Positions 7,213-50,108 of a stretch of DNA of 64,000 nt are shown here, in pieces (position 1 is the first letter of the stretch; every line of letters begins with the position of its first letter). A program made the translations under genes and the position numbers. The notes beneath the pieces are model-generated. The model had not been told where the DNA came from. It ran no database searches and was given only the letters and a program-made list of their open reading frames with translations. The DNA comes from an uncultured Chloroflexia bacterium (GTDB lineage Bacteria > Chloroflexota > Limnocylindria > Limnocylindrales > CSP1-4). The stretch is from positions 32,001 to 96,000 of the forward strand of contig CAVYIM010000007.1 of assembly GCA_963768655.1 (NCBI GenBank), written 5' to 3'.

Positions 7213-8148
7213 TCAGACACCGATCGCATCGGCCACCTCGCGCCAGGCTCGGTCCTGCTGGCCCTCGAGTCGCCTCAGGTAGACGCTCGTGACCGCCAGG
7301 CTCGAGTGGTCCAAGAACTGGCTCACCGACTCGATCGACTCGCCAGCGTCACGGCGCAATTTCGCAGCCGTGTGCCGCAAGATATGTACCCCGGTCGGCG
7401 CCATGCCGGCGAGCCGCAGGTAACGGCGGAAGCGGGCATAGAACGTCCCGCTCGTGACTCCCTGCGGCCGCGCAGCGGCCTGCCAGAGCGACTCGTCTGG
7501 CGCCATCGTCGCGAGCTCCTTGCCCGCGTCAGCCAGGGTTGCGCAGATGGCCTCGTAGGCGGGCCGGGGGAGTTCCCGTCGACCGCGCTTGCCGCCTTTG
7601 CCCCGGTAGGAGTAGAAGACGGTCTCACCCTCGAGGCTGAGGTCTCCTGCCCGGAGGCCGATCACCTCCGCTCGCCGGCGGCCGGTCAGGACCAGGGTCA
7701 GCAGGATCGCCCGGTCTCGTCGTCCCGCAACGGTATCGGGCACTACCGCGAGGAGCCGCCGCACCTCGTCCGCTCCGCATCCACGGGCCACCGACTGGAC
7801 GGCTCTCGGTCGTTCGATCGCATCGGTCGGGTTGGAGAGGACCAGACCCATCCGGATCAGGAAGCGGTAGAAGGAGGACAGGCAGGCGATCCGGGCTCCG
7901 ACCGTCGTAGCCGACGGTGTCCGCCCGGACTTGCCGATGCCGTGGACGAAGGCGAGGACGTCGGCTGGCTTGACCCGATCCGGCGTCTTGCCCAGATCCG
8001 CGAAGAACGGCCACAGCATCCGGCTGTAGGACTCGACCGTTCGTCGGGAGCCTGAGCGGTTGCCTTTCTCGACCAGGAAGCCATAGAGCGCCTGGTCCCA
8101 GGCGGAGGGGTCTCCGCTGGCCAGGGCGGGGAGTGGTTGAGCGGTCAT
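7213..8148 (-). CDS. Tyrosine recombinase 1
   Basis: TGRRRAE (R), GKGGK (K), HILRH, LDH, catalytic Y; N-terminal SAM-like domain. Confidence 0.93.
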   Translation of the reverse strand: MTAQPLPALASGDPSAWDQALYGFLVEKGNRSGSRRTVESYSRMLWPFFADLGKTPDRVKPADVLAFVHGIGKSGRTPSATTVGARIACLSSFYRFLIRMGLVLSNPTDAIERPRAVQSVARGCGADEVRRLLAVVPDTVAGRRDRAILLTLVLTGRRRAEVIGLRAGDLSLEGETVFYSYRGKGGKRGRRELPRPAYEAICATLADAGKELATMAPDESLWQAAARPQGVTSGTFYARFRRYLRLAGMAPTGVHILRHTAAKLRRDAGESIESVSQFLDHSSLAVTSVYLRRLEGQQDRAWREVADAIGV

Positions 8149-8258
8149 GGTGGGCGTCCTCGGGTACGGGCTGGACGCCCACATCAGTTACTCAGCCGGC
8201 CCCAGATAGCAACACCATGGCCAAATGGTGCCCATGGACGCCGGACCGAGTCGGGGCG

Positions 8259-8573
8259 TCAGCGATCGCCGGGCGGGTCCTGCTCAGGCGCCAGCGGGTT
8301 GATCGATTGGTTCCCAATCTGGCGCGCCCCTCCGAACAGGCTGAACTCACGCACCCGCAGCCGCCCGAGCCGGGGCACTCTTGGGGCGTCACTCCGCTCC
8401 ACGACATTTGCGAATGGTTCAACCTCCTCGATCCCGTGTTCTAGGGAGAGCGAGTAGATGTCGCTCGGCGGGTCGACGACGATGATGCCGCGCTCGAGCA
8501 AATCCTCTGCGGCGTCGGCGGAGAGTTCATAGGTAACGCCGTCGTAGACGAGCAGGCTCCTGCCGATCGCCAT
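8259..8573 (-). CDS. Hypothetical protein
   Basis: GGAGG upstream, protein-like composition. Confidence 0.5.
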   Translation of the reverse strand: MAIGRSLLVYDGVTYELSADAAEDLLERGIIVVDPPSDIYSLSLEHGIEEVEPFANVVERSDAPRVPRLGRLRVREFSLFGGARQIGNQSINPLAPEQDPPGDR

Positions 8574-8758
8574 CTCTGCCTCCGGATCCTCAAACCGGGC
8601 AACTCGTGGTTCAAGTTGCACTCACACAATTGTGACTCCGGCCCTGTCGTTTAGGTTCTACCGCGTTTCGTTGGCGCTGGCAGGATGGAGCGCAATGGCG
8701 AACGGACGCTATCGCGGCGTCGTGACGACCGCCTGCGGTCCCTTCTCGCGTGCGGCGG

Positions 8759-8980
8759 TCAGTCGACTTTGGCGAAGAGGCTGAAGAGACCGTTCAGCTC
8801 CTTCTCCGTCAGGCCGAGGTCATAGTCGATGAGAAGCAACTGAACCTCGATCTGCTCCACCTCCGCTCGTGAAGGCGTGGCGTTGGATACCCGTGCCGCG
8901 ATGGTGTGGGCCAGCCCTTCCAGCCTGGCCATGCGCTGGGCGGCCGCGTTGATCCGAGCAACTATCTCAGCGTTGGTCAT
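8759..8980 (-). CDS. Small helical hypothetical protein (73 aa)
   Basis: GAGGAG RBS, ATG at 8980. Confidence 0.6.
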   Translation of the reverse strand: MTNAEIVARINAAAQRMARLEGLAHTIAARVSNATPSRAEVEQIEVQLLLIDYDLGLTEKELNGLFSLFAKVD

Positions 8981-9558
8981 GGTTCTCCTCGTTGCCCCCG
9001 AAGAAAAGCGCGTCCTGAGGGGGATCAAACGCGCCCAATAGGTGGAGTCTAGAACGCAGCGGGGGTTCCTTGTCGGCGCTGGGCGGTGGCGCTTTCTGGC
9101 GCAGCGTTGCACGTCCACATGACGCCTTCTCGACACCGTGGCGACCCGCTGCCTCGCCAGACTCCGGGCCCGCTCCGCGAACAGATGCTCGCCCGAGCCT
9201 CCGTCGGCCATTTGGTCCGGCCTTCCCTGGCGGGGCCTCGACCCTGTCTGACCCAACGGTTGGCGCTGGCCTCTGTCGTCACCCACCAACGAGTCTTACC
9301 CCGACCCTCGATGCGACAGGCTTGCCCTTGCTAGTAGTCCCTGGTCACCGAGCACCATCGCCCGATCGTGAGGAGTCGAAAGGAGGAAGATCGCGACCAT
9401 CGGATTGGCCGCTGGTTCACAGTCAACCCTTGGGGAGCAGGCGGCCAGCAGTCGGACCTCGTTCTCGCCGGCCCGCGCCACAGGCCAATCATTCACTCAG
9501 TCATACTGCTGCCGTGGGGCGACGCCACAGGTGATTGGTAGCCGACGGGGAGTCGCTG

Positions 9559-10929
9559 ATGGGGTCGACGAAGACTTGCAGGCCGCGGGTGGGCGCTGTC
9601 CTGACCGGGTTGTTGCTCGTCGCCATCACGGGCTGCACGGCCGCCACACGCAGCCCGGCTCTTTCTGAGCGGCCAACCGCGGCTGCCAGTGAGTCGGTGG
9701 TAGCCCCTACCAGCTTGCCATCCTCGGCGCCCTCGTCGGTCCCAACGGATGTCCCTACCGCTGCGGCTTCGCCGTCTGATTACCCATATCCAGACGAGAA
9801 CCCGGGGCCGCCTCCGGCGCTGGCGAAGCTCACGACCGTGGATGTCTCCGGCTTCCAATCCGATGCGGCCAACAATGACCCGTACTGGGTCACCGTTGGA
9901 TCCGGCAGCGCGGCTCTTCACTACGACACCAGCAAGGCGAAGGGATCGATTCCGGTCCCATTGACCAAGGATGAACTGAATGACCCGCTTACTGGCGGTT
10001 ACCCGGACCTGTCTTGGAACGACCAGTTCGTGGTGATTACTACCGAATATGACATAGACCTGGAGGCCGGCGCCGCTGGGGGGTGTGGCTACGTGGCGGC
10101 GATTGCCTGGCAAATCCTGGTCGCCGTCATCGATAGCAGCGGGAAGCCTTCAGCCCCCACGGTGTTTGCCGTGGGTCAGAGCAACCTGAAGGTCGTTGGC
10201 CCGTCGAACACAGGCGCCGAAGGAGATGATTGTGCGTACCCGAGATTGCCCACGGTCGCGATGAGCGACGGCTTGATCGCCTACAACATTGAGAAGCCAT
10301 CTGTCGGCCAACCGTTCGGGTCCGAGATCCTGGTCCGTTCGTTGGCCGATGGCTCGACCGTTCGCGACTTGACTGTCCCCGACTACGTGGATTCCCTGCA
10401 GCTGTCAGGTCCGAACCTGGTCTGGATGGAGTTCGATGGCAATGTGGCGACCAGTCTGCCGCTCCGGATATCCACCGCGGCGAGCCCGGGCGCCCAGAAC
10501 TTCCTCGTCTACAAGACGCCCGGCGAAAGCGACCACTGGACTGCTCCGAAATACTGGCTCTCGGGGAACCTACTTGCATGGGACGGGTTTTCGACGGGGA
10601 AGGTCTGGCTCCGTGACCTCGCGACGGGCAAGCTCGCGCAGATCTCCCCAACCGGCGCAATCTGCGAACTCGAGGGTTTTGACGGCACCGACGCGCTGAT
10701 GACCTGCGGCGGCGACCCGAAGGTGTTGGCCTGGGCAGATGACTTCAGTCCTGATTGGGTCGTGTTGTGGTCATCGAGCGCCGGCGATCGCCTGCTGGTA
10801 AGCACACCGCCGGTCAACTGTTGGACCACGTGCGCCATGGCCAACGGCTCGGTCTTGGTGGACGTGACCGACGAATACGGGCGAGATACTTACTGGACCA
10901 TCCCCGTTGCAGCTCTGACCGGCAGTTGA
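9559..10929 (+). CDS. Secreted lipoprotein
   Basis: Lipobox ITGC, Pro/Ser/Thr linker, beta-rich body. Confidence 0.75.
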   Translation: MGSTKTCRPRVGAVLTGLLLVAITGCTAATRSPALSERPTAAASESVVAPTSLPSSAPSSVPTDVPTAAASPSDYPYPDENPGPPPALAKLTTVDVSGFQSDAANNDPYWVTVGSGSAALHYDTSKAKGSIPVPLTKDELNDPLTGGYPDLSWNDQFVVITTEYDIDLEAGAAGGCGYVAAIAWQILVAVIDSSGKPSAPTVFAVGQSNLKVVGPSNTGAEGDDCAYPRLPTVAMSDGLIAYNIEKPSVGQPFGSEILVRSLADGSTVRDLTVPDYVDSLQLSGPNLVWMEFDGNVATSLPLRISTAASPGAQNFLVYKTPGESDHWTAPKYWLSGNLLAWDGFSTGKVWLRDLATGKLAQISPTGAICELEGFDGTDALMTCGGDPKVLAWADDFSPDWVVLWSSSAGDRLLVSTPPVNCWTTCAMANGSVLVDVTDEYGRDTYWTIPVAALTGS

Positions 10930-11126
10930 GGGAGAAGCGCCATGGTCCAGGGCCGACGTCGCCTTCAAGTAGCACCCGACCGCCATGGCTTGATAGCGCA
11001 CGGGAGGACGAGGCCACTCGGTGCTGGCAGGTCGCGAGAGCGACGCTCTCAGGTTGAGATCAAGGTCTCAATCCCGTTGGCTACTGCGTCTTCAAGCGGC
11101 TCCTCGCGCCCCTCCCCGAGGCCGGC

Positions 11127-12572
11127 CTATTTGCCGCCAGCTGCCTCGCTGCCAACGATCTTCTGCTTGATGTCGGTGCTCGACTTGCTCAGGCCGGCGA
11201 TCAGTAGGTCCGGGGTGAGCCCAAACGCGGCCGCCACAACGAGGCCACGCGCGTCGCTGCCCAGATCGAGGACCTTGGAAAGGGAACCGGCGACGGCGGC
11301 AGCAACATCCGGGGTCGCGAACACGACGGGCGCGAGCGCGACTAGGAACACGCCCGCTACCGCGGCCAGCCCCGAGATCTGGGCAGTCGCAATGAGTCGG
11401 GCCTCGAATAGGCCGTAGTCGTCGACGGCAGAGTCGGCCTGCTCCTCGGCGCGAAGCCGGCTGAACAGGCCAATAATGGCGCCGGTAAGGAAGTACCCGC
11501 TTACCGCCACCAATGCCGATCGGCTGATCTCGCACACGATTGCCAGACCAACCATGAGGAATGTCACGAGGGCCGTGGCCAAGACGGCACGAAGGAGACG
11601 ATTGCGTTCCCGGATGAGACCTTCCCACTGATCGTCGCGGTACTCGTTGATCGCGGTACGCACACTCTTCACGACGGCGGAGGCGTCTTCGGACGGTGTG
11701 AAACCACCCACTGCCCCGGTGGGACCAAACAGGCCCTTGACGACCTCCGGGCCGATGGCTGCCTCGATTTCCTTCTGCAGCGTGGCACAGTTGGGGATGC
11801 TCGATCCGCTCAGTCGGTTGTAGTCGTAGATCGCGTCGCCAACGGCCGACGAACGGTCGATCTCGATTAGGGCCTCTTCAGCACGGTGGAGCGTGCGCCA
11901 GAGGTTCACATACCCCGTCGCCATCGCGAAGCGAAGGCCTGATTGGCCAAGCTCGATGTCAAGCGTTGACGAGTAGCTGCGCGCTTCAGCCAGTCGATCC
12001 CAGGCCTGCGGGTTGGCTGGTACGGGCTTGAGCTGCCACCAACTCTCGTATCCCATGCGCCAGGCGATGGAGTCCAGCAGACTGCGTAGCCTTCTGGCGC
12101 GAGGGAGAAGCTCGCCGTAGCTTCGAGACTGGGCGGTCTTGGCGCACGCCATCCAGTGGAATGCCGCCCCGCCTGTCACCCACAGGCTTAGGGCGACAGC
12201 CGTGCCCAGATAGAGCGCCTCCTGGTGTACCCGTCCGGTTCCGGGAGCAAGGTACGCGAGGACGACGGCCACAGCGCCGATGACTGGCAGAAACGGCGAG
12301 ATTGCCAGCAATGTGGCCCAGTAGGCCTCGTTGTAAGCGTTGTGGCCGAGGATGAGAGCGGCGGTCAGAAGCGTTGTCATCACGACGGCCACCGATCCGT
12401 CTGACAGGTCCTGGCGTATCCCGCCCGAGATGGGCCCCGGCAGGCCAAAGGTCCAAACGAGGAGCGCGCCGAGGAGTAAAGCAAGGGTCAGCAGGAAGGC
12501 GGCGCGCCAGCCGGCGTGGGTTTCGCGTTCCGGGTGCGGTGCTGGAAACCAGCTCAAGGATGGTGCGGTCAT
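11127..12572 (-). CDS. Multi-pass membrane hypothetical protein
   Basis: Two TM clusters around a helical soluble region; GGAGGT RBS. Confidence 0.75.
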   Translation of the reverse strand: MTAPSLSWFPAPHPERETHAGWRAAFLLTLALLLGALLVWTFGLPGPISGGIRQDLSDGSVAVVMTTLLTAALILGHNAYNEAYWATLLAISPFLPVIGAVAVVLAYLAPGTGRVHQEALYLGTAVALSLWVTGGAAFHWMACAKTAQSRSYGELLPRARRLRSLLDSIAWRMGYESWWQLKPVPANPQAWDRLAEARSYSSTLDIELGQSGLRFAMATGYVNLWRTLHRAEEALIEIDRSSAVGDAIYDYNRLSGSSIPNCATLQKEIEAAIGPEVVKGLFGPTGAVGGFTPSEDASAVVKSVRTAINEYRDDQWEGLIRERNRLLRAVLATALVTFLMVGLAIVCEISRSALVAVSGYFLTGAIIGLFSRLRAEEQADSAVDDYGLFEARLIATAQISGLAAVAGVFLVALAPVVFATPDVAAAVAGSLSKVLDLGSDARGLVVAAAFGLTPDLLIAGLSKSSTDIKQKIVGSEAAGGK

Positions 12573-12576
12573 GGAT

Positions 12577-12628
12577 ACCTCCCCCGTTCGGCAACGAACG
12601 GGGGAGGTCGCCTACATCGCTCCTCCCC
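12577..12628 (-). promoter_or_regulatory. RBS-sequestering hairpin with alternative pairing
   Basis: Perfect 14-bp stem acctcccccgttcg-gcaa-cgaacgggggaggt; second GGGGAGG at 12622-12628. Confidence 0.5.
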
Positions 12629-12959
12629 GCGGCCGCCGGACCGGCGCTCACTCTACTCGCCGCGCTGGGCCGTGCAAGAGTTTGGGCAGGGACCGGACGC
12701 TTGCGCGAATGGCCCGCGTCTCCGGCCTGCCGCCCCGGCGTAGTAGGCCAGCCCACGCGAATCCGTTGGTGGGTGCGCCCTCAAAGACCATTGCGGGGCA
12801 AGACTATTACGCGTCGACACCATGACCACATCGCGACGGGTCGGTGTCGGCACGCCGCCAAAAGGCGCACCATATCCTCTGGAGACACGGCGACGCATCT
12901 GAGATCGTCAGAGCGGCCAAGCCACGTCTGAGTTCAACCCAACATCAGGAGGCACGCGC

Positions 12960-13418
12960 TTGAGCCCGCTGTTCCCTCGCCGGAAGCAGCCAGCTCCTCA
13001 GCCACCGTCATCTCTGTTCGATCCGACAACGGTCGACCTTGTCGCATCCACCAGAAGCGGCGACGCCCGTCTCTACATAGTCCGGGACCAGCAATGGACA
13101 GGATCTGACCCCGAGATCAGGTCGCTGCAGGAGAAGATCCACAACTACGTGGGCTTTGCGCTCGACGGCGGCATGGTGGCTCTCTATCCGGAGCTCACCG
13201 CCCAGCCATGGGCGATCGTCATTGACACGTACACCGGGCGTCCGGACGCTCGGACAATCGACGTGCTCCAGCGAACTGGAGACGTTGTCCGTCAGTACGG
13301 CGGCGAGCTGGTTCTCCACGAGCTGCGGCCGCCCGAAGGGCCCGGCCTACTACCGATGACGGTGAGCGTGACGAAGCTCGGCACGGCGCTCGATCCTTCC
13401 GAGCCCTTCGACTTGTAG
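12960..13418 (+). CDS. DUF6572-like protein
   Basis: D..W....LQEKIHNY..F...G....YP pattern; AGGAGG RBS. Confidence 0.6.
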   Translation: MSPLFPRRKQPAPQPPSSLFDPTTVDLVASTRSGDARLYIVRDQQWTGSDPEIRSLQEKIHNYVGFALDGGMVALYPELTAQPWAIVIDTYTGRPDARTIDVLQRTGDVVRQYGGELVLHELRPPEGPGLLPMTVSVTKLGTALDPSEPFDL

Positions 13419-13584
13419 ATCTCCGTGGTCGAGCGTTCGAGCGGTACCGTATTGGCGCACGCTGGCGAACGAAGCGTGCCGGACCCGGCGACACGATGCG
13501 CGGATCGTGACCGGCTCAATCTCGGACGCGTGGCCGGGTGTCACCGTCAGGTCGGTGGTCGGACGAGCGAGGTAAGCACTCCCT

Positions 13585-15390
13585 TTAGGAGACCCAGTCG
13601 GGCGCTTCGCTCGCCGCCTTCCTCCATAGGGCGTAATTCGTCTCGCGAGTGGGCGCGTCCATCCTGGGCTTCCACTCGCGATCCTTCTGCCAGTTGGCCC
13701 GAAGGTCCTCGACGGTCTTCCAGAAGCCGACCGCCAGACCGGCTGCGTAGGCGGCGCCGAGGGCGGTCGTCTCGGCGACTTTGGGCCGGATGACCGGCAT
13801 GCCCAGGACGTCGGCCTGGAACTGCATCAGGGTCTCGTTGAACACCATGCCGCCGTCAACCTTGAGGGCCTTGAGCGGAACGCCGGAGTCGGCGTTCATC
13901 GCGTCGAGAACCTCGCGGGTCTGCCAGGCCGTCGCCTCGAGAACCGCCCGGGCGATGTGGCCCTTGTTCACGTAGCGGGTGAGGCCGGCGAAGACGCCGC
14001 GGGCATCGCCCTTCCAGTGGGGCGCGACCAGGCCGGAAAAGGCCGGCACGAAGTACACGCCGCCGTTGTCATCGACGGTCTTGGCCAGATCCTCGACCTC
14101 GGCGGTGATCCTGATCACTCCCAGGTTGTCGCGCAGCCACTGGACGAGGGCGCCGGTGATCGCGATCGAGCCCTCGAGGGCGTAGACCGCGGGCTGGTCG
14201 CCGATCTTGTAGCCGAGCGTCGTCAGCAGACCGCTCTTGGACGGCACCGCCTTCGTGCCCGTGTTGAGGAGCATGAAGCAGCCGGTGCCGTAGGTGTTCT
14301 TCGCCTCGCCGGGCGAGAAGCATGTCTGGCCGAAGAGGGCGGCCTGCTGGTCGCCTAGGTCACCGGCAACGGGCACGCCAGCGAGATCGCCAACGGCCTT
14401 GCCATAGACGGCGCTCGACGGCTTGACCGCCGGCAGCATGGAGCGCGGGATGGTCATGAGCTTTAGGATCTCGGGATCCCAGTCGAGGGTCGCAAGATTC
14501 ATGAGCATCGTCCGGCTGGCGTTACTCACGTCGGTGACGTGAACGCCGCCGTTGACGCCGCCGGTGAGATTCCAGATGCACCACGTGTCGATGTTCCCGA
14601 ACAGCAGGTCGCCTGCCTCTGCCTTGGCGCGGGCGCCGGCGACATTGTCGAGAATCCACTTGACCTTCGGACCGGAGAAGTAAGTTGCGAGCGGCAGGCC
14701 GACCTTGGCCCGCAGGCGGTCCTGGCCGCCCTGCTTGGCAAACTCATTGATGATCACGTCCGTCCGGGTGTCCTGCCAGACGATCGCGTTGTAGACCGGC
14801 TTGCCGGTCTTGCGATCCCAGACGACCGTCGTCTCGCGCTGGTTGGTGACTCCCACCGCAGCGAGGTCCGAGGCGGCGATGCCCGCCTTCTTGAGCGCGC
14901 CACGGATGACCTCGCCGCAGCGGGTCCAGATCTCCATCGCGTCGTGCTCGACCCAGCCCGGCTTGGGGTAGATCTGTTCGTGCTCTTTCTGATCGATCCC
15001 GACCACGCCACCGCTGTGGTCGAAGATCATGAAACGTGTGCTTGTGGTGCCCTGGTCCAGGGCGCCGACATATTGAGCGGAGGAAACCGCACCTAGTAGT
15101 CGCTGGAGCTGTTCGATCGCGGGTCGGGGGAGGTCGCCCACCTCAAGGTAGTGCTTGGCGAGACGACGGGCTTCAGGCTCGTTGCCGCCCTTCCGATAGA
15201 GCGCGACTGCGCTTATTGCCACGACGCCACGCGTGCGTGGGCGGTCAGACGGGACTCTGTCGAACGCAGCGGCTTCCCAGTGGGCCGCCTCAAGGTACGC
15301 CGCCGACGCAGCCTGTTCCTCGCCGCGCGCTAGAAGATCGTTGCCACGAATCATCAGTGCCTCGGCCCGACGGTGAAGATCAAGAGACAC
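13585..15390 (-). CDS. glpK: Glycerol kinase with extra ~105-aa N-terminal helical domain
   Basis: [43 protein letters not shown]. Confidence 0.9.
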
Positions 15391-15396
15391 TGCGAT

Positions 15397-15969
15397 CTAG
15401 GCCTCCTTCAGCCAGATGCGGCCGTTGAGGAAGCCAACGACCCCGGCCATAGCCGGTTTCGACCAACCTTGGGCGCGAACCTGTTCGATCTTCTCGCGCA
15501 GTCGCCGAGTCATCTTGGCTTCGTCGTCGAGGTCTATGCCCGACACCTCGAACAGCACGACGTCATCTCTGTCGAGGTTCAGGTCTGGATCGTCCGTCGC
15601 CTCCGCACCTGCCGGGACCAAGTAGTAATCCCCTCCTGATTCGGCCAAGGCCTGGCCGATCGTCACTAGCCCCACGCGGAGTTCTGCCGCACCCAAAGCG
15701 AGCGCGCAAGCACCATTCTCGGTCGCCTGTACCGCATTTCTGTAAGCCCGGACCAGCCTCGTGTCAGGCTCGGTCCAACGCAGTTCAACCTCGACGGACG
15801 CTCCAGGTTGCACGCAAACGCTCGCTGTTGCGGGCGGACGATGATGCCGACAAAGGCACACCCGAGCGGCGTCAGTAAGGAACGCCGCCACCGAGGCCGG
15901 CACGCCTGGATGCGTTCGGTGTAGGAAGTCCTGGTCGAGATCGAAGCCAGGTTTGGGGCTCAGTATCAT
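15397..15969 (-). CDS. Putative PD-(D/E)xK-like nuclease-fold protein
   Basis: ATENGA...GGDYYL...FEVSGI...K..Q pattern; 6 nt upstream of the glpK fusion. Confidence 0.5.
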   Translation of the reverse strand: MILSPKPGFDLDQDFLHRTHPGVPASVAAFLTDAARVCLCRHHRPPATASVCVQPGASVEVELRWTEPDTRLVRAYRNAVQATENGACALALGAAELRVGLVTIGQALAESGGDYYLVPAGAEATDDPDLNLDRDDVVLFEVSGIDLDDEAKMTRRLREKIEQVRAQGWSKPAMAGVVGFLNGRIWLKEA

Positions 15970-16087
15970 GTTGGGACAGGGTATTCACCTCCATCGGCAG
16001 GGACAATCCCTTGGCCCTGCCCAGGCTGCACCATGAGCAGATAAGTTGGTCAGGCCCAGACGGCGACTCGCCTCGAGTAACTTGGTG

Positions 16088-16609
16088 TCAGACCTTCATC
16101 AGGATGTCGCTCAGCCGGGAGAGCCTACGCCGGATGAAGTTCATCCCTTTGTTTGCCCATTCGGGAACTCCTTGGTACACGCCCCCGCTGAAGTCGGCAT
16201 CGCTCTCGAAGTGTGAGAGGTAGTCGGGGGCATACCGCTCAACGCTCCGCCTCGCCTCCTGGTACCAGGCGTCGATCCGGGTCTCCCATTGCGCCCGGAG
16301 GGTTTCATCGGACGCCCCGTCGGTTCCCAACTTCACGGCGCCAAGCTCCTTGATCAGCGCGTTGCCAGCTTGGAGGATCCGATTTAGCTCGAAGGAACCG
16401 GGCCGAAGAAACGACACGCGCGCTACCACCGGCCGGGCACTCGCGACGTAGGCCAGAACGCCGGCGACACCTGCCGCGACCAGGAACGGTGTCAACGTTC
16501 CCGCCTTGTCAGCGGCTTTGGGATCAGTCGCGACGAGGGTCGCCAGCGCAGCGAAATATGCCGTGAACAGGGCCGCGCACAGACCCGCCAGCAGCCGCCG
16601 CACAATCAT
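16088..16609 (-). CDS. 2-TM membrane hypothetical protein
   Basis: Two hydrophobic helices then a soluble helical domain. Confidence 0.6.
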   Translation of the reverse strand: MIVRRLLAGLCAALFTAYFAALATLVATDPKAADKAGTLTPFLVAAGVAGVLAYVASARPVVARVSFLRPGSFELNRILQAGNALIKELGAVKLGTDGASDETLRAQWETRIDAWYQEARRSVERYAPDYLSHFESDADFSGGVYQGVPEWANKGMNFIRRRLSRLSDILMKV

Positions 16610-17045
16610 GCCGCCCTCGAGCCGCTCATGGCCCGCAGAATACGCCAGGCGGAGCGCCCTCGAAGCAGCCGCTCAACGGCCGCCAGGATAGGGGGCGGGT
16701 CGACCCGGCCGATCAATATCGTCACCATCCAGCGATAGCGTGAGCCCAGAGCGGGCAGAGTCGCCGGTTCTGAGAGCGTGCAGCCGCTGGCCGTGTCCGC
16801 CGCGAACGGCAGCAGCCGAGAGTGTGCTTCTGCTTAGACCAGCCAGTTCAAACAGGGTAGACTACCCGGCGGTTCCTGCCCCAAGGGTCAGCACAACCGT
16901 CGCGAGGCTTCGAGGCGGCGACCCGCTCATCGGCGGGAAGAGCCGCTGGTAGCGTACCGGCGCTGTGTTGGACTTGAAGGCCCAACAGGGCCGGGGGTAT
17001 CTACGATTCTCGCTCTGCGCAGATTGGTTCACCAAGCAGCTGCTG

Positions 17046-17831
17046 ATGCATGCCACTTCTCGTCTGCTCCCTGTGCTGGCTCTGGGCTTGGTCGCTGTTG
17101 CCTGTGCTTCCACGAGCGCAGCCCCAGCGGCCCCGGGTGCCTCTACAGCGCCGGTTCAGACAGCGGCCGCCACAACCGCGGTTGCGGTCACTGAGTCGGC
17201 AACGGCCACAGCCCCGCTGACCGCGGCCCTGACATCTGCGCCGACAGCCACGGCGAGCGCGCCGCTGCGCCTGGTGGTGCTGGGCGACAGCATCACCGCC
17301 TGGGGCAGCTGGCCGGCCGCAGTGGATGCCGCCAGTCCGCACCTGGTGCTGGTGCACAACGCCGGCGTGGCGGGCGACAGCACCGCGCAGATGCTCGCCC
17401 GCCTCGACCGTGACGTGCTGGCCTATCAGCCGGACGTGGTGGTTCTCATGGGAGGTACGAACGACCGCTGCCTACGGAGTCAGCCGGCCACCGTGGCCCA
17501 GGCTGCTGCCAACCTGCGCGCGATCATCGAACGCCTGCACGCCGCCGGCGTACTGGTCGTGCTGATGACGATCCCACCCTGCCTGGGCCTGGCGCGCATC
17601 CTCCCGATGAATGCGGCCATTCGGCGACTGGCCGCCGTCGAGGGTACGCCGCTAGTCGACATCTACGCCGCGCTGGTGGGCAAGGGCGACGCCTACGTTC
17701 CGGCCTACCAATGTGGGGACGGCATCCACCCGAGCGCCGCTGGCTACGCGAAAATGGCCCAGGCAATCCTGGCGGTGACCAGCCAGTTGTGGCCGGAACA
17801 GCATCCGGCCCGCGCCGAGCCCAAAGACTAA
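17046..17831 (+). CDS. SGNH/GDSL hydrolase lipoprotein
   Basis: LGDSIT, NAGVAG, GGTND, DGIHP; lipobox AVAC. Confidence 0.88.
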   Translation: MHATSRLLPVLALGLVAVACASTSAAPAAPGASTAPVQTAAATTAVAVTESATATAPLTAALTSAPTATASAPLRLVVLGDSITAWGSWPAAVDAASPHLVLVHNAGVAGDSTAQMLARLDRDVLAYQPDVVVLMGGTNDRCLRSQPATVAQAAANLRAIIERLHAAGVLVVLMTIPPCLGLARILPMNAAIRRLAAVEGTPLVDIYAALVGKGDAYVPAYQCGDGIHPSAAGYAKMAQAILAVTSQLWPEQHPARAEPKD

Positions 17832-18061
17832 TTCCTGTGCTCGCTGAGCAAGCGTTTCGGCGCGCCTCCGCCTCGGCTGGCGAATTCCGCGGCTCCGCCC
17901 CGGGCCTTTTCGTGTCAAGTCCGCATTCATGACGTGATACATTAGCCTGCGACTGGCCCTGCGAATTACGCAGGGCCGCCGATGGGGTAGCGCAGGGGCG
18001 CTCGACCGGCTTTGCAGGCATCGAGGAGGGCTTCGGTGTGCGTACGTCAGGTTCGGCATTG

Positions 18062-21000
18062 ATGAATCGAACGATGCGGCACGGCAGGCTCGCTGCTGTA
18101 GTCACCGTCGCAATCCTGGTCGCAGGTCTGTCGCCCGTGTTGCCGGTCATAGCTGCCACAAGGCCCGGACCTCTCCCGCCCGTCCTGACGCCTAGGATCG
18201 ATCCTTCGGCCGCGCAGAGCCTGGCCCGCTCGACCGCTCCCACGGCCGAGACGTCGAGGCCGACGGCCGGCGCACCTGATGCCGCCGGTTCCGGCATGGC
18301 CCCGACCGAAGTCCCGTCTCTGCGCACGGCGTATAGCGACACCTACGACAACCACGACGGCACGTTCACTGTCCACGTGAGCCCCGATCCTATCAACTAC
18401 CAACCGACGGCTGGCGCGGCCTGGACGCCCATCGATCTGTCCTTCGCGCCGATCTCGGGCGGCAGCGGCCGAGTCAGAGCCGGGATGACGCCGGTCCCGG
18501 TCGAGGTCGGGGCGCCCGGCGACGCGGCTGGCTTTGTGAGTGTCGACACCGGCGAGGGCGTGATCAGCCTCCGGCTCGTTTCTGGGGCCAAGCAGGGCAG
18601 CTCGGCATCGGAGCCTGTGGCCGCAGCGGGCGGCGCCAAGGTTGCTGGCCTGCTCCCAGGCGTTGATCTACAGGTCAGCGCCAATCCCTCTGGCTTCAAC
18701 ACGTTCCTCGCTTTCGCCTCTAGACCCGCTTCCCCCTCGTTCACCTTTGAGCTGGACTCACCCGGGCTGACCCCTGCTCTGCAACCCGACGGCTCAATCA
18801 GTTTCCTAGACAAGAGCGGCATGACGGTTGCCACGATGCCCCATCCCTATGCCGAGGATTCGACGCCCGACGATCAGCGCGGCAGCGGGCAGATGACGGT
18901 CGACGTCGTCTATTCGCTCGCTACCCAGGGCGCCACCACCCTGCTCACGGTGAGCGTCGATCCGACCTGGCTCGCGAGCGCGGTCTATCCGGTCTATGTC
19001 GACCCGTCGGTCAATGTGAGTACCACCGCCAACATGAAGGACACCTTCGTCGACGCGATGTACCCGACAGAGAACTGGGAAGGCTTCAAACGCTCGGACT
19101 CCCCCTACTACTACGAGATGCTTCTCGGAGAAGACCCCGACAACTCGACGCAAGTCTGTAAGGACCTGCTCAGCTTTACGATGCCGGCCGCGGTTGCAAG
19201 CTCGACAATCGACTCGGCCACGCTCCAGATCTTCCCCTACTGGCAGTACGAGCACTACAGCGCGGTCACGACTTGGGTCGACCAGGTGACATCGAGCTGG
19301 AGCGCGGGGAGCGTAGATTGGAACAACCAGCCGAGCATCACCACGACCGGCGCCGTGACGGCGACGACAGTCCAGGGCACGACCGGATCATTCGACATCA
19401 CGAGTTTCGTGCAGGGCTGGGTCGACACCCCTTCGACTAACTACGGCATCCAGCTGAACGAGAACGGCAACGGCGGCACCTATTGGAAGCGCGTGATCTC
19501 GTCTGAGCAGACCGGCGCCAACATACCCACGCTAGCGATCACCTACAGCAAGCCTACGGCGACCGTGTCCGCACCGACCGGTAACGTGTGGACCAACAGC
19601 CGCACCCTGACCTGGGCCTACACCTCGACCGACGGCCCGGCCCAAGCCGCCTACGACGTCCAGGTTGCGACCGACTCTGGCTTTACCAACCTCGTCGTCA
19701 ACACGGGCAGCCAATCGGGCGCTGCCTCCAGCTACGCGATCCCATCGGGCACCACCCTGACCAACGGCACGACCTACTACTGGCGAGTCGAGGTTTCCGA
19801 TGGCCATATCTGGTCGGCCTGGACCGCCGCGGCTCAGTTCCGCTGGGACGCCACGGCGCCAGCCTGGAAGGGTTTCACCGCGCCCGCTGCGCAGGTCGAC
19901 CAGTCGGCGGCCTCCTACACTTTCGCCTGGAATGCTGCGACCGATTCCCCCGGGTCCGGGGTCGCTGGCTATAGCCTGCAGGTCCAAACGGCTGCGATCT
20001 CGTCTACAGCCAACGTGTGCTCCACGACATGGTCGAATTCTCGGTACGGTCCAGCCCCTAACCACCACCAGCTACGCGGTTTCCTCCATGACTGGCGCCA
20101 CGTGCTATCGAGTCGGCGTATTCGCCACGGACGCAGTCGGCAACCCAAGTAGTACGTACAGCTCCAGCCCGGTCCTGGTCGACACGACCTCGGCCAACGC
20201 CCCGACGGTCACCGACAACTGCACTTCGCTCGGCTCCTGCTATCGGGTCGGCAACACGATCTACTTCCGGCCTGCAGCAGCCGGCACGCTCAGCCTGACC
20301 TCGACCGGCACGGACAACGAGTCTGGCATCGCCTCCTCGACCTTCGGCGCGCTCTCGGCTCCGACCGGCTGGACCTATACCTCGGGCACGGTCACGGGCA
20401 ACCCGGCCTCTAAGAGCGTCACCTGGTCGAGCACGGCCGGCAGCACGACGCTCCAGATAACCACCACCAACAATGCCGGACTCGTTTCGCCCGCCACGAC
20501 CATCACCTTCACACCGGACTCAACGATCACAGGTTCCTTCACCACGCCCGGCAGCAGCCTCGTCGTTCAATCGGGCACGAGCTACTCGGTCGCCTGGACT
20601 GAGACAGAGACTGGATCTGGCGTCGCGAGCCGCTCGCTGCAGCGTCAGAAGGGGACCGTCGCCACGGCCGGCACCTGTACCGGAGTCACCTTCGCCAACG
20701 ACGGTAGCCCGTCCACATCTGCCTCACCGGTCAACGCCACCGGTCTGGTCAGCGGCAACTGCTATCGCTGGGCTCTGACCCTCACCGACAACGTCGGCAA
20801 CATTGCGACCCTAACGTCGGGTTCGGTCCTGGTCGACACGACCTCGGCCAACGCCCCGACGGTCACCGACAACTGCACTTCGCTCGGCTCCTGCTATCGG
20901 GTCGGCAACACGATCTACTTCCGGCCTGCAGCAGCCGGCACGCTCAGCCTGACCTCGACCGGCACGGACAACGAGTCTGGCATCGCCTCCTCGACCTTCG

Positions 21001-24000
21001 GCGCGCTCTCGGCTCCGACCGGCTGGACCTATACCTCGGGCACGGTCACGGGCAACCCGGCCTCTAAGAGCGTCACCTGGTCGAGCACGGCCGGCAGCAC
21101 GACGCTCCAGATAACCACCACCAACAATGCCGGACTCGTTTCGCCCGCCACGACCATCACCTTCACACCGGACTCAACGATCACAGGTTCCTTCACCACG
21201 CCCGGCAGCAGCCTCGTCGTTCAATCGGGCACGAGCTACTCGGTCGCCTGGACTGAGACAGAGACTGGATCTGGCGTCGCGAGCCGCTCGCTGCAGCGTC
21301 AGAAGGGACCGTCGCCACGGCCGGCACCTGTACCGGAGTCACCTTCGCCAACGACGGTAGCCCGATCACCAGCGTCTCCCCGGCAACGTTCAGCGCTCCG
21401 GTGGCCGGCTACTGCTACCAATGGGTGCTCACGCTTACGGACACCGTCGGCAACGTCGGAACCAGCACGTCAGGCATGGTCATCCGCGACACCAGCAGCG
21501 CCCTCGGGCAACAGAGCCAGCTGAGCCTTGAATTCCTGGGCTCTGGGATCGGGCGACGGGGCGGACGTCAACGTCGTCACTGGCGACCTGGTTGTGAGCC
21601 ATTCGATCGTGAGCCTGCCCATCCGCGGCAGCTCGGTCTCGCTCGATCTCACCTACAACAGCCAGGATCTCGCGAACGTCGGTCTCGGCACCGGCTGGCG
21701 CGTAAACGTGCAGCGGCGGCTCACGCTCAACCCCGACGGCAGCGTGACCCTCGTCGACTCCGACGGGGCGCGATACCTGTTCACGAACCCCGTCACCAAC
21801 GGCACCGTCACGACCTACGCGCGGCCGGCGGCTCTGTTCGCGACCCTGGTCGAGGACACGAGCCAGCAGAGCCAGTTCACCCTGACCTACAAGGACCTCT
21901 CCCTTGACCGCTTCCTCATCTCCGGGTCCGACGCGCTCCTGGTCCGCCAGCAGGATCGCTTCGGCAATGGCGTGACGATCGCTTACAACAGCGGAACCGA
22001 GGACATCTCGACCGTTACTGACGACACGGCCCGAGTCATCAACTTCACCTGGACCACCACTACCTCGCCCCATCAGCTCGCCTCGATCACCGACTGGGCC
22101 TGGATCAACAGCTCGGGCGTCGTCCAGACGAGCGCCACCGGCTCTCGCCGGACCTATCGCTTCTTCTACGACGGCAGCGGCGCCCTGATCGGCTGGGCCG
22201 ACCCGCTCAACGCGTCAGGCACCTGCCCGACCGGCGGGAGCCATCTGACCTGCCTGACCTACAGCGGCGGCCAGCTGACCGGCATTGCCAAGACGCAGAC
22301 CTACACCACCTTCAACGGCAGCTCGCTGGGCGCTGCCACCCGCGTGGCTTCGACGAGCTTCGCCTACTCTAGCGGCGACGTGGCCGGCGTCACCGACGCC
22401 CTGACCAACCAGACTACCTTCGACCGCTCGACACCGGGCCAGACCACCGTTCATCGGCCGGCCAGCGGCGCGGTCACATATGCCTTCGCGGCAGCCGACC
22501 CGTACGGCCGTGTCACCTCGGTCTCGCGCAGCCTGTCGGGCACGCCGATCGTGCAGACGACGGTCTGGGACGCCGCCTTCCCGACGCTGCCCGACTCGGT
22601 CACCGACAACTCGACCGGAGCTCTGAGCACGCCCTCGCGGACAGTGACGTATACGTACTTCGCAGGTTCGATGGGCAACCTGGCGCGGGAGGTCGAGCCT
22701 CTGACCGCGACGACCGACCGGCGGACCGATTACACGTACAACGCCAACAACGACGTGACCCAAGAGATCGTCAGCCAGGATGGCTCGACGACCCTTCAGA
22801 CCACCACTCGATACTGCTACGACAGCGGCTGCTCGCTCAGCGGCAGCGGCCTGTCGATACTCAGCGAAATCGACGACTACGTCTCGGGTAGCTCTGCCAC
22901 AAACGACACCAACGTCCGGACCGACTACGCCTACGACGCCTACGGGCAGAAGACCCGGACCACGCGCCACAACCGTGATGCAGCAGGTGCTGACCTCGAC
23001 GACCGCATCGACGCGTCGGTCTACAATTCGTATGGCGACGTGACGGCGTCGATCACCAACTATGCCGACGGCCAGGTGACCGGCGGCACCGACGTGACTC
23101 CCGATGCCAGCGGCGCCCGGACAGACCTGACGACCACGTACACCTTCGACACCGCCGGCAACGAGGTCAGCGTTGCCGACCCGCGCCGCGCGATCGAACT
23201 CGCTCTCGGATCTGCGGGTGCCGACGACTATGTCACCCGCTCCACCTTCGATGCCCTCAACGAGAACCTGAGTCAGACCACCCCGACGACTCCCGGGGTC
23301 AGCGGCGTCCCCAGAAGAGCTCGTCGAGCGTCTACGACGAATTCGGCTCGGTCCGAGCTGCAACCGACCTGAACGGTATCGTCACCGGCACAGCCTTCGA
23401 TGCCGGTGGCAACTCGACCGCTACCTATGAGATCGACCCCTCGCCTCTCGGCGCCTCACAGACGTCGTCTTCTACCTATGACGCCGCCGGTCGCCTGGCC
23501 ACCAGCAAGGACGCGCGGCAGGTCGCCAACGGCGCCCTAGGTCACACCGCCTACGGATATGACGATCTCGGGCAGCAAGTCTCCGTCACCGACGCCGCGG
23601 GGTCCAGCCCCGACATCTCAAGCGAGACGACAACCACTTACGATGCCCTCGGGCGCAAGACGGCAGACGACTACTCAGTCGGCGGTACGTCCTATACCTA
23701 CGATTTGGGAGGCCGAGCGCTCACGACCGACGACGGCCTGTCCTGCTCGACGAGCACGTACGACTACCAGGACCGGACCACGACCACTACCAGCGGCCTG
23801 AACACCGGGACCTGCACCGATGGCGGTGACGGCTCCACGACAACCAACACCTACGACGGCCTGGGTCGGCTCACGCTGGCCCAGATCACTGCGGGCGTGA
23901 ACGTCGGAGACAAGACAACCAACGATGTCTACGACTCCGCGGGCGACAAGCTCTCCGACTCGACCACCAAGTCCGGTGTGGTGGCGACCGCCACCACGCA

Positions 24001-25897
24001 GTTCAACCTGCTCGGCCAGGCTATGAGCGTTCTGGCTATCGATGGCTCCACTACGAAGTCCGACTATGATCCAGCCGGCAACGTGTCCGACAGCTGTCTG
24101 TGGGCCTCGGGCTCCACGGTTGGCTCGTGCTACCCGGTGGGCACGACTCCATGGACCAACCCGCCGACCAAGGCGACGAGTTCGGTCTACGACGCTGGTA
24201 ATCACACCATCGCCTCGACCGACGCCGCCACCGCGATGACCACGACCTACGACCCGACTCACGACTACGCGGTCGCCGCCACATACCTGCCGACAGGCTC
24301 GGGCCACGAGTATCAGACCTACTACACGTACGACTCCAAGCAACGCGTGACGGCGCTGACCCACCAGGACTGCACCCTCTCGACTGGCCACTCCTGCACC
24401 AGTGCGAACGTCGTTGGCTCCGACGCCTACACGTACGATGCCAACGACAACCGGACGCAGGTCACCGAGTACAACGGCGCTACCACGACCAACGACTACT
24501 ACTGCTACGACGCGAACAACCGGCTCGTCGCCGAGAAGTCGGGCAGCTCGTGCGCGACCAATCCCGACGAGACGTACACGTACGACGACTCCGGCAACCG
24601 CCTGACTGCGACCGTCGGTGGCGTAACTACGAACTTCGCCTACGACAGCGACGGCCGCCTGTGCGCCGTTGGGGCGACCTCCTGCAGCTCACCCAACGTC
24701 ACCTACGACGATGCCGGCCGAACAGCGACCTACAACGGCTGGTCTTACCTCTACGACTCGGCGGGCCGTCTGGTTTCGGCTTGCCAGAGCACGAGTTGCA
24801 CTGGCTCGGGCTTCAACCGAGTCGACTACACGTACGATGGCGACGGCAACCGTACCCAGATCGTTGACACGACTGCAGGAGGCGTCGCTACCACCACGAC
24901 CTTCACCTACCAGGGCGGCATCATGGTCGGCGAGTCGGTCAACGGCACGCCGTCGCGCGGCTACCTAGCAGCCGGCGGCTCGATGGCCGAGATGACCATT
25001 CCGAGCGGTTCGGAAGCCGGGACCTACATCGTGACCTGGAACGGTCACGATGACGCCACGAGCCTTAACTTGATCAACGGCGACGGCTCGCTCACCCCGG
25101 TCAACAGCTACAGCTACTCGACCTGGGGAACGCCAACGACAAGCGTGGCCAGCGGCGCCAGCGACCTGGCCTTCCGCTTCCTCTACATCGGCTCGGGCGA
25201 TGTCCAGTGGGACAATGACTTCAGTATCAGCCTAGAGTACATGCACGCGAGGAGCTACTCGCCTGCGTTGGGGCGGTTCCTGCAGCCTGATCCAAGCGGC
25301 GAGGATCTCGGTTACGCTTACTCGCAGAATGATCCCGTTGGGCACGCAGATCCCACGGGCACGTTTGCCATCCCGCGACTCATATGGGGGGTTGAGTGGG
25401 GCTACGAAGGGCAAGACTACGGCCTCGCCAATCTAGCCGTAGGCCTTGTCTGCGGACTCACGAGCTTCAGCGGCTTCTTCACCAGCTGGATTGGCTATTC
25501 GGTCGGTGCTGGCTGCACGATCGGCGGATACATCCTGGGGAGCACGCCAATTGGCGGGTTCCTAGAGTCGCTGGCAGGAAAGAAGGCAAAGGGCTCCACT
25601 GGATGGGACGTTATGGTTGAGACTCCGCACGTGTTCCTGCGCGTACTGTCCTATTGCCCGCCGGGCAGCCGCATTTGCTCAATCAGTCAGGTGCGCATAT
25701 GGATCAAGATGAGGCAATCCTATCGTGATTGGTGGTGCCGCTACTACTTCACGTATTCAACCTGGCAGCTCAACAACCCGGACTGGTTCAGTGGCTACAA
25801 TGGCGCCACTCCCATGTGCCCCAAAATGAACAACAACCAGGCCTCCATCCTCGTCTCGGCCGTGGGCCTCATCCCAATCCTTTTCGACATGCTATAG
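18062..25897 (+). CDS. Giant secreted RHS/YD-repeat protein (DNRLRE-like and Ig-like domains), broken by about 4 frameshifts
   Basis: ORF pieces 18038-20152, 19800-21524, 21528-23372, 23705-25897; YD repeats; core ending RSYSPALGRFLQPDP...DPTG, then variable tip. Confidence 0.8.
20170..21364 (+). repeat. Near-identical ~540-bp internal duplication (20170-20711 / 20824-21364), period 654
   Basis: Direct comparison; second copy lacks one G in agaaggggacc. Confidence 0.9.
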
Positions 25898-25976
25898 GGG
25901 TAGTGCTGGGCATACTCGACGGAGCATGGGCAACGAAAGGGCCAATAGGTTCGCCGCACATAGCGGAGGCTAGACT

Positions 25977-26339
25977 ATGGACAGGTCTTGGGCGGTGACT
26001 CAAGCGGCCAGAGCTGGTGCTTCGGTTGGGGCACTAGTAGGTGCGCCCGTGGCCTACGGCCAGAGCCGGATCCCGGGGGCTCTGGTGGTCGCAGGCTTCC
26101 TTCTCGGGGCCGCCATCGCCACTCAGTACGCGCTCCGGCGGCTGGAAACCTCCAAGCGGGTAGTTACTCCCGTAACGCTGACAGCGTATGCAGCCGTCTT
26201 CTTCGGGCTTCAGGCTGTGCCGGCAGCCGATGCTTACCTGGCGGCCATCGTGGTTTTCGCCATCATAGGCTTGTCGATGTGGCTGCCGAGCGCTTGGGCT
26301 GGAAGGTCAGCCCAGAAAGGTAGAGGCCCGACCCGCTAA
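25977..26339 (+). CDS. Membrane protein, probable RHS immunity protein
   Basis: About 4 TM, GGAGG RBS, directly after RHS tip. Confidence 0.55.
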   Translation: MDRSWAVTQAARAGASVGALVGAPVAYGQSRIPGALVVAGFLLGAAIATQYALRRLETSKRVVTPVTLTAYAAVFFGLQAVPAADAYLAAIVVFAIIGLSMWLPSAWAGRSAQKGRGPTR

Positions 26340-26444
26340 AGCCAAGCGCAAACCGGCGGAAGTGTCGGAGTTGTCCGGTCGGGTGATCGCCTTGGCGCGC
26401 TCGCCAGATGCACGCGTAGGTCTCGGGTCATTGACTTCAGCGCG

Positions 26445-27348: not shown

Positions 27349-27541
27349 TACGCGAACCCACGGTGCTCGCCGGAACTGGCCAACGGTGCTCGGACTCACC
27401 CCACAGTCGCGCTCCCTAGGTTATCGAGCCGAGCCTCAGCCCGCCAACTCTGCCGACGAGCCCACAGGGCCGCACACCTTCACCCGTAAAGTGTCGGGCT
27501 GACTCCAAAGACGGCTCCGATCCGATCGAGAACTGGCCGCC

Positions 27542-28006: not shown

Positions 28007-28172
28007 CGATGGATCATAGCAACGACGCTAAGCCGAATGGGTCCTGTCGACGACCCACTGGTCGGCGAAGGCGTGTTCAGCCCCGCTCCGCACCTTACCC
28101 GTATAGTGTCGGCTCTAATCCTCTGAGCCCGACCCAGAAGAACCTCGTTTGTGAGGGCAGCCTAGATGGCGG

Positions 28173-29036: not shown

Positions 29037-29223
29037 CGGCCGGCCTCCCACAGGGTACGCAGGGACGCTAGAGCGACGGCAACTCGAGGTCAAGCCACCG
29101 CCGTCGCGCAACCAAGCCGAGCCCTCAGCTCAGGATGAACAACGTCGCCCGAGCACCGTGACGATGCAGCCATCGTGTTGCCGCCGTTCGACGCCGGCGC
29201 CAGTGGTTCTTGGCTCCGCGCGA

Positions 29224-30751: not shown

Positions 30752-30795
30752 GTCACGCCGAGCGTTGTGCCGATCGCTCCGAGCCGGGCTACCTC

Positions 30796-49930: not shown

Positions 49931-50108
49931 GGAGCGTGGCCCATTCCCGCTGTGCGGGAGAAACCCAACACTGGCGCGCGCCGCGGTCGTCGTCTCTCTG
50001 GCCATTGCGTCACGATGTTCGCATCGTGAATGCTGGCGACGCGAGCCCTAGACACTCATGGCATACGTGGACCTCCGCCTTGATCTAGTCTCGTGACAGC
50101 GGCAAGAG

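Follow-up and report, generated by a model that had tools for sequence, protein, structure and literature searches.

How does unrelated cargo come to lie between invariant short sites, in the same order, in one array after another? The question is posed by a 64,000-nucleotide (nt) stretch of DNA from an uncultured Chloroflexia bacterium (contig CAVYIM010000007.1, positions 32,001 to 96,000; the whole stretch is called the window below), in which two genes for an Xer-like tyrosine recombinase each head a series of short palindromic sites with genes between them. An original prediction, made from the window's letters alone, had taken the first of these series for a gene-cassette array. From our comparison of the window with related loci, we consider it likely that such an array is a recombinase-headed row of core sites, at which site-specific recombination between sites with the same spacer exchanges the cargo slot by slot, a slot being the interval between two neighbouring sites, and the register of the array is kept.

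Sites, spacer classes and breakpoints

Each site consists of two 6-bp inverted arms (CACNAT and ATNGTG) flanking a 6-bp spacer, 18 base pairs (bp) in total, and the window carries two arrays of them, array 1 from 8213 to 29177 and array 2 from 41276 to beyond the window end. The eight sites that the original prediction listed all exist, letter for letter, where it had placed them. Its consensus, CRCBAT-N6-ATVGYG, fits six of the eight exactly, but those at 8707 (right arm GTCGTG) and 16029 (ATAAGT) deviate from it; these two are borne out by exact spacers of the classes called B and I below and by the same relative position in other genomes. Among the extra sites it had suspected, the one at 29160 is a genuine class L site; that at 28091 scores 13.9 bits, but its spacer recurs nowhere among the arrays examined, and those at 30890 (5.8 bits) and 31454 (below 11 bits) are unsupported. 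Fixed-order spacer classes, the extension of array 1 to 29177 and the second array from 41276 had been overlooked.

The sites are far more frequent in the arrays than chance would give. In the window the consensus has eight matches against 0.27 expected, a number reached in none of 100 shuffles; the 3.37-Mb genome holds 22 matches, six of them within 8213-16740, and the stricter form CACSAT-N6-ATSGTG has nine exact matches in the genome, five inside the window. Since this consensus had been fitted to the very sites tested, an independent weight matrix of the 12 arm positions was made, trained only on the head sites of 26 relatives' loci, with array 1 excluded. Its hits at 16 bits or more number 43 in the genome, nine in the window and five in 8200-16760, where the background of 10.3 per Mb leads to an expectation of 0.09. 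The sites also keep to one side of the recombinase gene. Next to the 26 relatives' head sites, 67 further sites of at least 14 bits occur on the promoter side in 181.8 kb against 4.8 expected, and at the same threshold 39 more distant copies (66-80% identity) have 55 sites in 210.8 kb on the promoter side versus 6 in 242.7 kb on the other. Downstream (3') of the recombinase in four relatives, sites of at least 13 bits number 0, 0, 0 and 1 in 3.9, 8.9, 11.3 and 20 kb, respectively. A pattern for class B has 77 matches in 37 of 51 genomes of the genus, and its reversed control has one.

At the head of each array, the site type follows a conserved leader ending in (A/T)AGCAA just upstream of the recombinase start in 26 of 26 relatives' copies, so that the motif expected beside homologues of the enzyme is indeed found there. 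The similarity of the window's two recombinase modules stops, as had been noticed, at the left arm of the first site (AGCAACACCAT). The distance from the recombinase start to the head site, given as about 65 bp, is correct for the 311-aa form that is usual among homologues, but it is 29 bp from the first ATG (8184). A class A head (spacer gaccaa, ggccaa or tgccaa) stands at the same position in 13 of the 26 relatives' loci; class B heads 10, class C one, and other spacers two. AGCAA as the -35 box of a recombinase promoter is unsupported: neither a sigma-70-like promoter nor a terminator-like pattern was found in 7900-9500.

Across the arrays, at least 12 spacer classes can be distinguished: A (gaccaa), B (cgcggc), C (cacccg or cgcccg), D (ggcttg), E (gaccac), F (gcgcgg), G (gttcgc), H (gcacgc), I (gagcag), J (ccagcg), K (caggtc) and L (gcagcc). 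Array 1 reads A, B, C, D, E, F, I, J, L, and array 2 reads B, C, G, I, J, followed by K and L past the window end. Counting exact spacers only, with an arm score of at least 9 bits (28 arrays, 124 sites), we find 123 sites pointing the same way and one inverted; 93 of the 95 neighbouring pairs ascend, a figure that is partly post hoc as the class letters were assigned from the observed order. Label shuffles within arrays gave a mean of 47 ascending pairs and a maximum of 62 in 10,000 trials. Within a class the spacer is nearly invariant and the arms vary; the class D spacer, for one, is exact in 13 of 13 sites. Conservation is confined to the 18 bp, each flank position of 100 internal sites holding at most 0.4 bit, with a weak cGA preference just left of the left arm as the sole flank signal. 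Recombinase copies with 66-80% identity head partly different ordered series, such as tcggag, A, gagaac, gggtgg, E, ggaagc, ctggtc or, in another example, gccggg, E, F, gtccgc. In the 62%-identity copies of two complete genomes (G361 and G462), the arms have shifted to CMCTAT/ATAGGG and the series includes gtgtga in 8 of 8 arrays, gcagac in 7 and caactc in 3. Orphan arrays with no recombinase nearby occur in the window's own genome, at C3:268147-284660 (B, C, F in order) and at C8:87375-90724 (L, J, I on the other strand).

As the original prediction had anticipated for gene content in related elements, the breaks in homology between arrays coincide exactly with the sites. Pairs of internal same-spacer sites from 66 arrays were compared over 40-nt flanks: of 589 pairs, 582 have no common flank, seven have one and none has both. 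In the seven one-flank pairs, the arm is identical on the shared side in five and on the unshared side in one, as expected after a crossover between the arms. Three arrays in two genomes have one F-G slot in common and differ in their E-F and G-H slots, and the class L sites of arrays 1 and 2 have right flanks 98.6% identical over 1.9 kb and differing left flanks and left arms (GACGAT versus CTCGAT). Among 50 other genomes of the genus, only three stretches of the DNA of 8185-17000 were matched. At the protein level few slots have homologues, and these always lie in the same or a compatible slot; this comparison (tblastx between slots) was run without a low-complexity filter and gave many weak Ala/Arg/Pro-rich matches, of which only those above about 80 bits were used.

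The recombinase and exchange between same-spacer sites

The recombinase that heads array 1 contains a core-binding SAM-like domain (PF02899) and a catalytic domain (PF00589) only, and no arm-binding domain was found in it. Its catalytic R-K-HxxR-H-Y set aligns to XerD with all six residues covered, and R169-171, K196, H267, R270, H293 and Y302 are invariant among nine homologues down to 61% identity. It scores 91.5 against the XerC model (cut-off 335), 87.8 against XerD (329.6), 45 bits against the integron-integrase model TIGR02249 (265) and 29.8 against NF011946 (435). Judged by these scores, it is neither IntI nor XerC/XerD, in agreement with the earlier remark that no IntI signature could be seen.

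Within the genus the gene is multi-copy: 13 of the 36 other genomes have it, one of them with as many as 14 matches, and it was found in 0 of 24 sister-family genomes. Metagenomes are very rich in homologues, with 3,483 at E <=1e-20 among 8,000 scored candidates, and their source organism, where stated, is Candidatus Limnocylindrales (Chloroflexota). Species-representative genomes hold 376 loci encoding a relative, mostly in uncultivated Chloroflexota from peat, fen and soil; in a sample of the phylum at E <=1e-50, the recombinase occurs in 12 of 401 genomes and 9 of 217 genera. The array is a family-wide property, not confined to one genus. Copies lie on the same strand, two in the window, five within 350 kb in G462 and three within 133 kb in G361. 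Their left flanks are unrelated except between the window's two copies and in one pair of relatives. A conserved backbone 3' of the recombinase was considered and rejected, the similarity of 14 copies stopping at the stop codon.

Inverted arms around a 6-bp overlap are the standard core of a tyrosine recombinase, and enzymes of this type need matching overlap sequences, as is established for Cre, Flp and Xer. We propose that the two 6-bp inverted arms are bound by the same protein, probably the adjacent Xer-like enzyme, which would cleave on either side of the 6-bp spacer and exchange strands at this overlap. The array begins 30-70 bp upstream of the recombinase gene and presents its classes in one order and one orientation. 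Because overlaps must match, a site would recombine productively only with a same-class site of another array, which could be a second copy in the cell or incoming DNA. A crossover at class X would fuse the two arrays into a cointegrate and a second crossover at class Y would resolve it; the net result would be a swap of the segment from X to Y, down to a single slot, with the order kept. The outcome would be multi-allelic cargo slots, in which unrelated genes lie between invariant "addresses." Such a need for matching overlaps would explain why spacers stay constant as arms drift, why the classes keep their register and why the sites share one direction; and since the spacer order is fixed, unrelated DNA could be exchanged at homologous positions without homology.

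Several points weigh against this proposal. The B-headed arrays (10 of the relatives' 26 loci and array 2) and those headed by C or E need a leader joined to a non-A site, and same-spacer exchange cannot join the conserved leader to another class. Switches of head class are frequent, numbering 37 on a recombinase tree of 69 tips (with shuffling, 47.6 on average and 41 at least), and same-spacer exchange leaves them unexplained. Similarity among 14 recombinase copies runs exactly to the stop codon, where no site lies. For a tyrosine recombinase, arms with only six conserved bp are short. The order statistic, as said above, is in part post hoc; the choice of labels alone is unable to lift an unordered set to 93 of 95. 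Orphan arrays exist, and some genomes in which the recombinase was not found have class B sites; because of this, another enzyme could act on the sites. Finally, no circle, cointegrate or alternative junction was seen in public reads. One run contained 21% of the words sampled from 7200-17000; the contigs obtained from three runs were short and of low depth, with cross-matches to other organisms' glycerol kinase and no joints at any site, and this result weighs neither way.

Part of this, namely the A-, B-, C- and E-headed arrays, the frequent switching of the head on the recombinase tree and the same-strand tandem copies, would be accounted for if the arrays were docking platforms, that is, rows of attB-like landing sites at which a recombinase-bearing integrative element inserts wherever a site matches its own spacer. 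We think this unlikely, since a second copy of the site would be expected at the far end of the element and none lies 3' of the gene, where similarity stops at the stop codon; deep slots also differ with breakpoints at the sites, a pattern that head insertion alone does not yield. Capture of the integron type, with single-gene circles inserted one by one at the head site and excised between neighbouring sites, recalls the recombinase at the head, divergent from the array and with the first site beside its start, as well as the slots of one or two open reading frames (ORFs) and the orphan arrays, which resemble CALINs (clusters of attC sites lacking an integron integrase). It is nonetheless highly doubtful here. 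At least 12 spacer classes stand in a fixed order and orientation, and simple excision of one slot is disfavoured because each slot is bounded by two different spacers. The IntI model falls far short of its cut-off, ORFs point in either direction, no more than 18 bp is conserved and no attC-like hairpin is present at the folded sites, as the original prediction had held: folds of 80 nt around 13 sites gave z values from +1.10 to -2.62, |z| below 2 in 10 of the 13 and no common structure.

The sites could also be true recombination sites of some other enzyme, either the host Xer or the large serine recombinase that adjoins both recombinase copies of the window, with the tyrosine recombinase as a passenger or regulator. 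The orphan arrays, the class B sites in genomes where the recombinase was not found and, in the window, the place of a large serine recombinase next to both copies speak for this, but we regard it as very unlikely: the serine recombinase turned up beside 0 of 22 other sequences (tblastn), inverted arms with a conserved 6-bp overlap are the established layout of a tyrosine recombinase core and not of a serine att site, and recombinases of another lineage, at 62% identity, come with another site type (CMCTAT gtgtga). Scarcely credible, in our view, is the idea that the palindromes are transcription-factor operators or terminators in a syntenic element of common descent whose intervening genes merely diverged. 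The sites are indeed palindromic and intergenic, and at the head of the array the site overlaps the probable recombinase promoter region; two sites, however, lie between convergent ORFs, the flanks show no relationship even at the border of the 18 bp and yet the class spacer is kept, which an operator does not need, tblastx gives few same-slot homologues, and 7900-9500 has no terminator- or sigma-70-like pattern. Slotwise exchange at same-spacer sites thus stays the reading that we prefer. The comparative data support the cassette platform on short tyrosine-recombinase core sites that had been predicted, and the adjacent recombinase would be its catalyst.

The two arrays, their cargo and their surroundings

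The features of the two arrays are collected below. All nine sites of array 1 fall between long ORFs.

Table. Recombinase genes, leader, sites and cargo of the two arrays, in window coordinates (bits, score of the arms)
Feature	Position	Strand	Remarks
Xer-like simple tyrosine recombinase copy 1, 323 aa	7213..8184	-	heads array 1; PF00589 + PF02899
Conserved leader, recombinase start to head site	8185..8212	.	ends (A/T)AGCAA; kept in 26 relatives' loci; similarity stops at site
Array 1 head site, class A (CACCAT ggccaa ATGGTG)	8213..8230	+	19.7 bits
Array 1 cargo	8231..29159	.	seven small slots (1-2 ORFs each) over 8231-16722, then 12.4-kb slot J-L
Class B site (CGCTAT cgcggc GTCGTG)	8707..8724	+	13.8 bits; class spacer exact
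Class C site (CACCAT cgcccg ATCGTG)	9353..9370	+	20.6 bits; spacer again at 43333 and in relatives
Class D site (CGCCAT ggcttg ATAGCG)	10981..10998	+	11.9 bits; convergent ORFs either side
Class E site (CACCAT gaccac ATCGCG)	12818..12835	+	16.4 bits
Class F site (CACGAT gcgcgg ATCGTG)	13492..13509	+	19.9 bits; convergent ORFs either side
Class I site (CACCAT gagcag ATAAGT)	16029..16046	+	7.7 bits; weak right arm; exact class I spacer, correct place in series
Class J site (CACCAT ccagcg ATAGCG)	16723..16740	+	16.0 bits; spacer also at 61941
Class L site (GACGAT gcagcc ATCGTG), last recognised in array 1	29160..29177	+	L after K or J in 4 other arrays
Tyrosine recombinase copy 2	40275..41210	-	82% identical to copy 1; heads array 2
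Array 2 head site, class B (CACCAT cgcggc ATCGTC)	41276..41293	+	20.3 bits
Array 2 class C site (CACCAT cgcccg CTCGTG)	43333..43350	+	14.6 bits
Array 2 weak class F candidate	49289		6.2 bits; spacer exact
Array 2 class G site (CACGAT gttcgc ATCGTG)	50011..50028	+	19.9 bits
Array 2 class I site (CGCTAT gagcag CTCGTG)	56411..56428	+	10.8 bits; spacer exact
Array 2 class J site (CACGAT ccagcg ATCGTG)	61941..61958	+	
Array 2 classes K and L	window-equivalent 64782 and 65934		beyond window end

The cargo ORFs occur in both orientations, and most slot proteins have no family match in Pfam, NCBIfam or PADLOC. Those that can be named, over both arrays, are a DUF6572 protein, an FGGY kinase, a GDSL lipase, a CBM96 protein, DUF6531/RHS proteins, MBL-fold proteins, a pyridoxal phosphate (PLP) enzyme, an esterase, an LPG-synthase-like protein and copies of a Mutator-family insertion sequence (IS). 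The first six kinds occur in the slots of array 1. PADLOC recognised no defence family among 10 proteins (eight array cargo ORFs and two ORFs of the recombinase-side module), and neither Rfam at gathering thresholds nor a tRNA scan gave a match in the window. The FGGY (glycerol-kinase-like) gene at 13616-15072, in slot F-I, has 95% DNA identity to C5:527039-528495 of the same genome and is 70-89% identical to single copies in most genomes of the genus; the ends of the copied stretch lie off the sites, and therefore cargo enters the slots by another route. The gene in slot D-E may be frameshifted, as two ORFs of different frames (11127-12572 and 11986-12756) overlap there. A homologue of the slot A-B gene (74% DNA identity) lies at about 5161-5600 of locus L014 (G001:C2), in a genome where the recombinase was not found, and is preceded by GAAAGCAA and CACGAC ggccaa ATAGTG, which correspond to the end of a head-type leader and a class A site.

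The IS, 1.49 kb long with a transposase of 441 aa, is present as identical inverted copies at 47309-48797 and 50109-51597, which bracket the class G site and the weak class F candidate of array 2; a partial copy of 904 bp lies at 26445-27348, in slot J-L of array 1. Repeated domains of secreted cargo proteins are suggested by tandem repeats of about 138 nt (62394-63529) within a long ORF at the window end and by a 654-nt duplication (20170-21492) within ORF 19800-21524.

Two recurrent stretches were considered as parts of the sites and rejected. A stretch of 50-85 nt at 12730-12800 recurs at C3:266421, C3:290102 and C3:304948 and in many genomes of the genus; its minus strand reads as the conserved 5' end of a coding sequence, with the protein N-terminus MRAHPPTDSRGLAYYAG. 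The 15-nt motif TTGGCGCACGCTGGC and its variants, preceded by GACA, occur between genes in both arrays, at 13452, 45739, 46373 and 46890; at 13452, 45739 and 46890 the motif is not consistently beside sites.

The two copies of a direct repeat (29145-31529 and, on contig C7, window-equivalent 65918-69177) start at the class L sites of arrays 1 and 2. They are 98.6% identical for 1.9 kb and 90% identical for the next 0.5 kb, the second copy carries a 0.87-kb insertion, and the repeat contains genes for a PLP-dependent enzyme and for a protein rich in Pro and Thr. In the interval from array 1 to recombinase copy 2 lies the block 31503-37174, which encodes two family-less proteins, a protein matched by DUF5763 below threshold only, a ParB-N/DNA methylase fusion and an AAA_25 ATPase. 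Homologues of this block lie at the same relative place, after class L, in G025:C6 (methylase 79% identity); because of this recurrence, the arrays may belong to a larger plasmid- or phage-like element. The large serine recombinase genes at 3274-5112 and 37069-38811, two ORFs downstream of each tyrosine recombinase copy, share 73% DNA identity over 1.7 kb. This enzyme was considered as a partner of the arrays and rejected, the 22 other sequences without it in the tblastn search comprising 11 extended arrays, four left flanks and seven flanks of 1.5 kb.

Comparison with known systems

Site-specific cassette and module systems are themselves already known, and the new feature here is the conserved order of spacers. 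In the full-text literature, with subscription journals and supplements outside the scope of the search, we came across no account of an ordered array of this kind with a recombinase at its head, and none of such an element in Limnocylindria or Chloroflexota. The closest known system is that of the dif modules of Acinetobacter, and integrons come second. Crossovers within Acinetobacter pdif sites with identical or near-identical 6-bp spacers were detected by polymerase chain reaction and sequencing, and exchange of a single module was proposed to proceed through a cointegrate at one pdif and resolution at another with a matching spacer (PMC13141974). As described there, dif modules share with the present arrays the short core sites, made of arms and a 6-bp spacer, and the unrelated cargo bounded exactly by them (PMC13141974). 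The differences are as clear. A pdif site is 28 bp long with distinct XerC and XerD arms, whereas the sites here have symmetric 6-mer arms (CACNAT and its complement). Neighbouring pdif sites alternate in orientation (C/D modules), whereas 123 of 124 sites here point one way. The pdif modules are plasmid-borne and use the housekeeping Xer pair of the host; the present arrays are chromosomal, tens of kb long, headed by a dedicated recombinase gene and found in Chloroflexota. The fixed order of at least 12 spacer classes likewise sets these arrays apart from pdif modules.

With integrons, the arrays have in common a tyrosine recombinase at the head, divergent from small cargo units and with the first site beside its start, and the existence of arrays that lack the recombinase. 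Unlike integrons, they show no IntI signature and no attC hairpins, and their cargo lies in both orientations; attC sites are imperfect hairpins of roughly 55-140 nt at cassette ends. Integron cassettes enter at attI in any order, and the order of the array reflects the history of capture. The present system is unlike this because its spacer classes keep a fixed order and orientation across genomes: position is set by spacer class here and by order of capture in integrons.

Variable cargo at fixed positions of an ordered element is also found in the hotspots of SXT/R391 elements and in mosaic phage modules. In those, the positions are set by conserved backbone genes and exchange occurs by homologous recombination, whereas nothing is conserved between the slots here except the 18-bp sites. 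Shufflons and other invertible-segment systems depend on inverted sites, unlike these arrays, in which only one site of 124 is inverted.

To our knowledge, integrons and, more recently, dif modules are the only well-described movers of cassettes by site-specific recombination. Whether the arrays form a third natural platform beside these two seems to us evenly balanced. Such a platform would be address-coded and register-preserving: a dozen or more mutually incompatible spacers would be recognised by a single Xer-like recombinase, and each slot of a multi-copy chromosomal array would be an independent, highly multi-allelic locus across soil and freshwater Chloroflexota, each lineage with its own spacer alphabet. 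As the recombinase family is so large, the arrays may rank among the main routes of gene flux in an abundant soil lineage. The same logic is found in engineered heterospecific (orthogonal) lox sites with recombinase-mediated cassette exchange, in which the arms are likewise identical, the spacer decides compatibility and the swap is made in register (PMC10850332). Heterospecific lox sites are a laboratory design, whereas the sites described here are natural, with a dozen or more classes per lineage in lineage-specific sets. If the reading as a third platform is true, the arrays would be the natural counterpart of heterospecific-lox cassette exchange and a source of orthogonal sites for one enzyme, and one enzyme with a dozen or more naturally orthogonal sites would serve multiplexed genome engineering.

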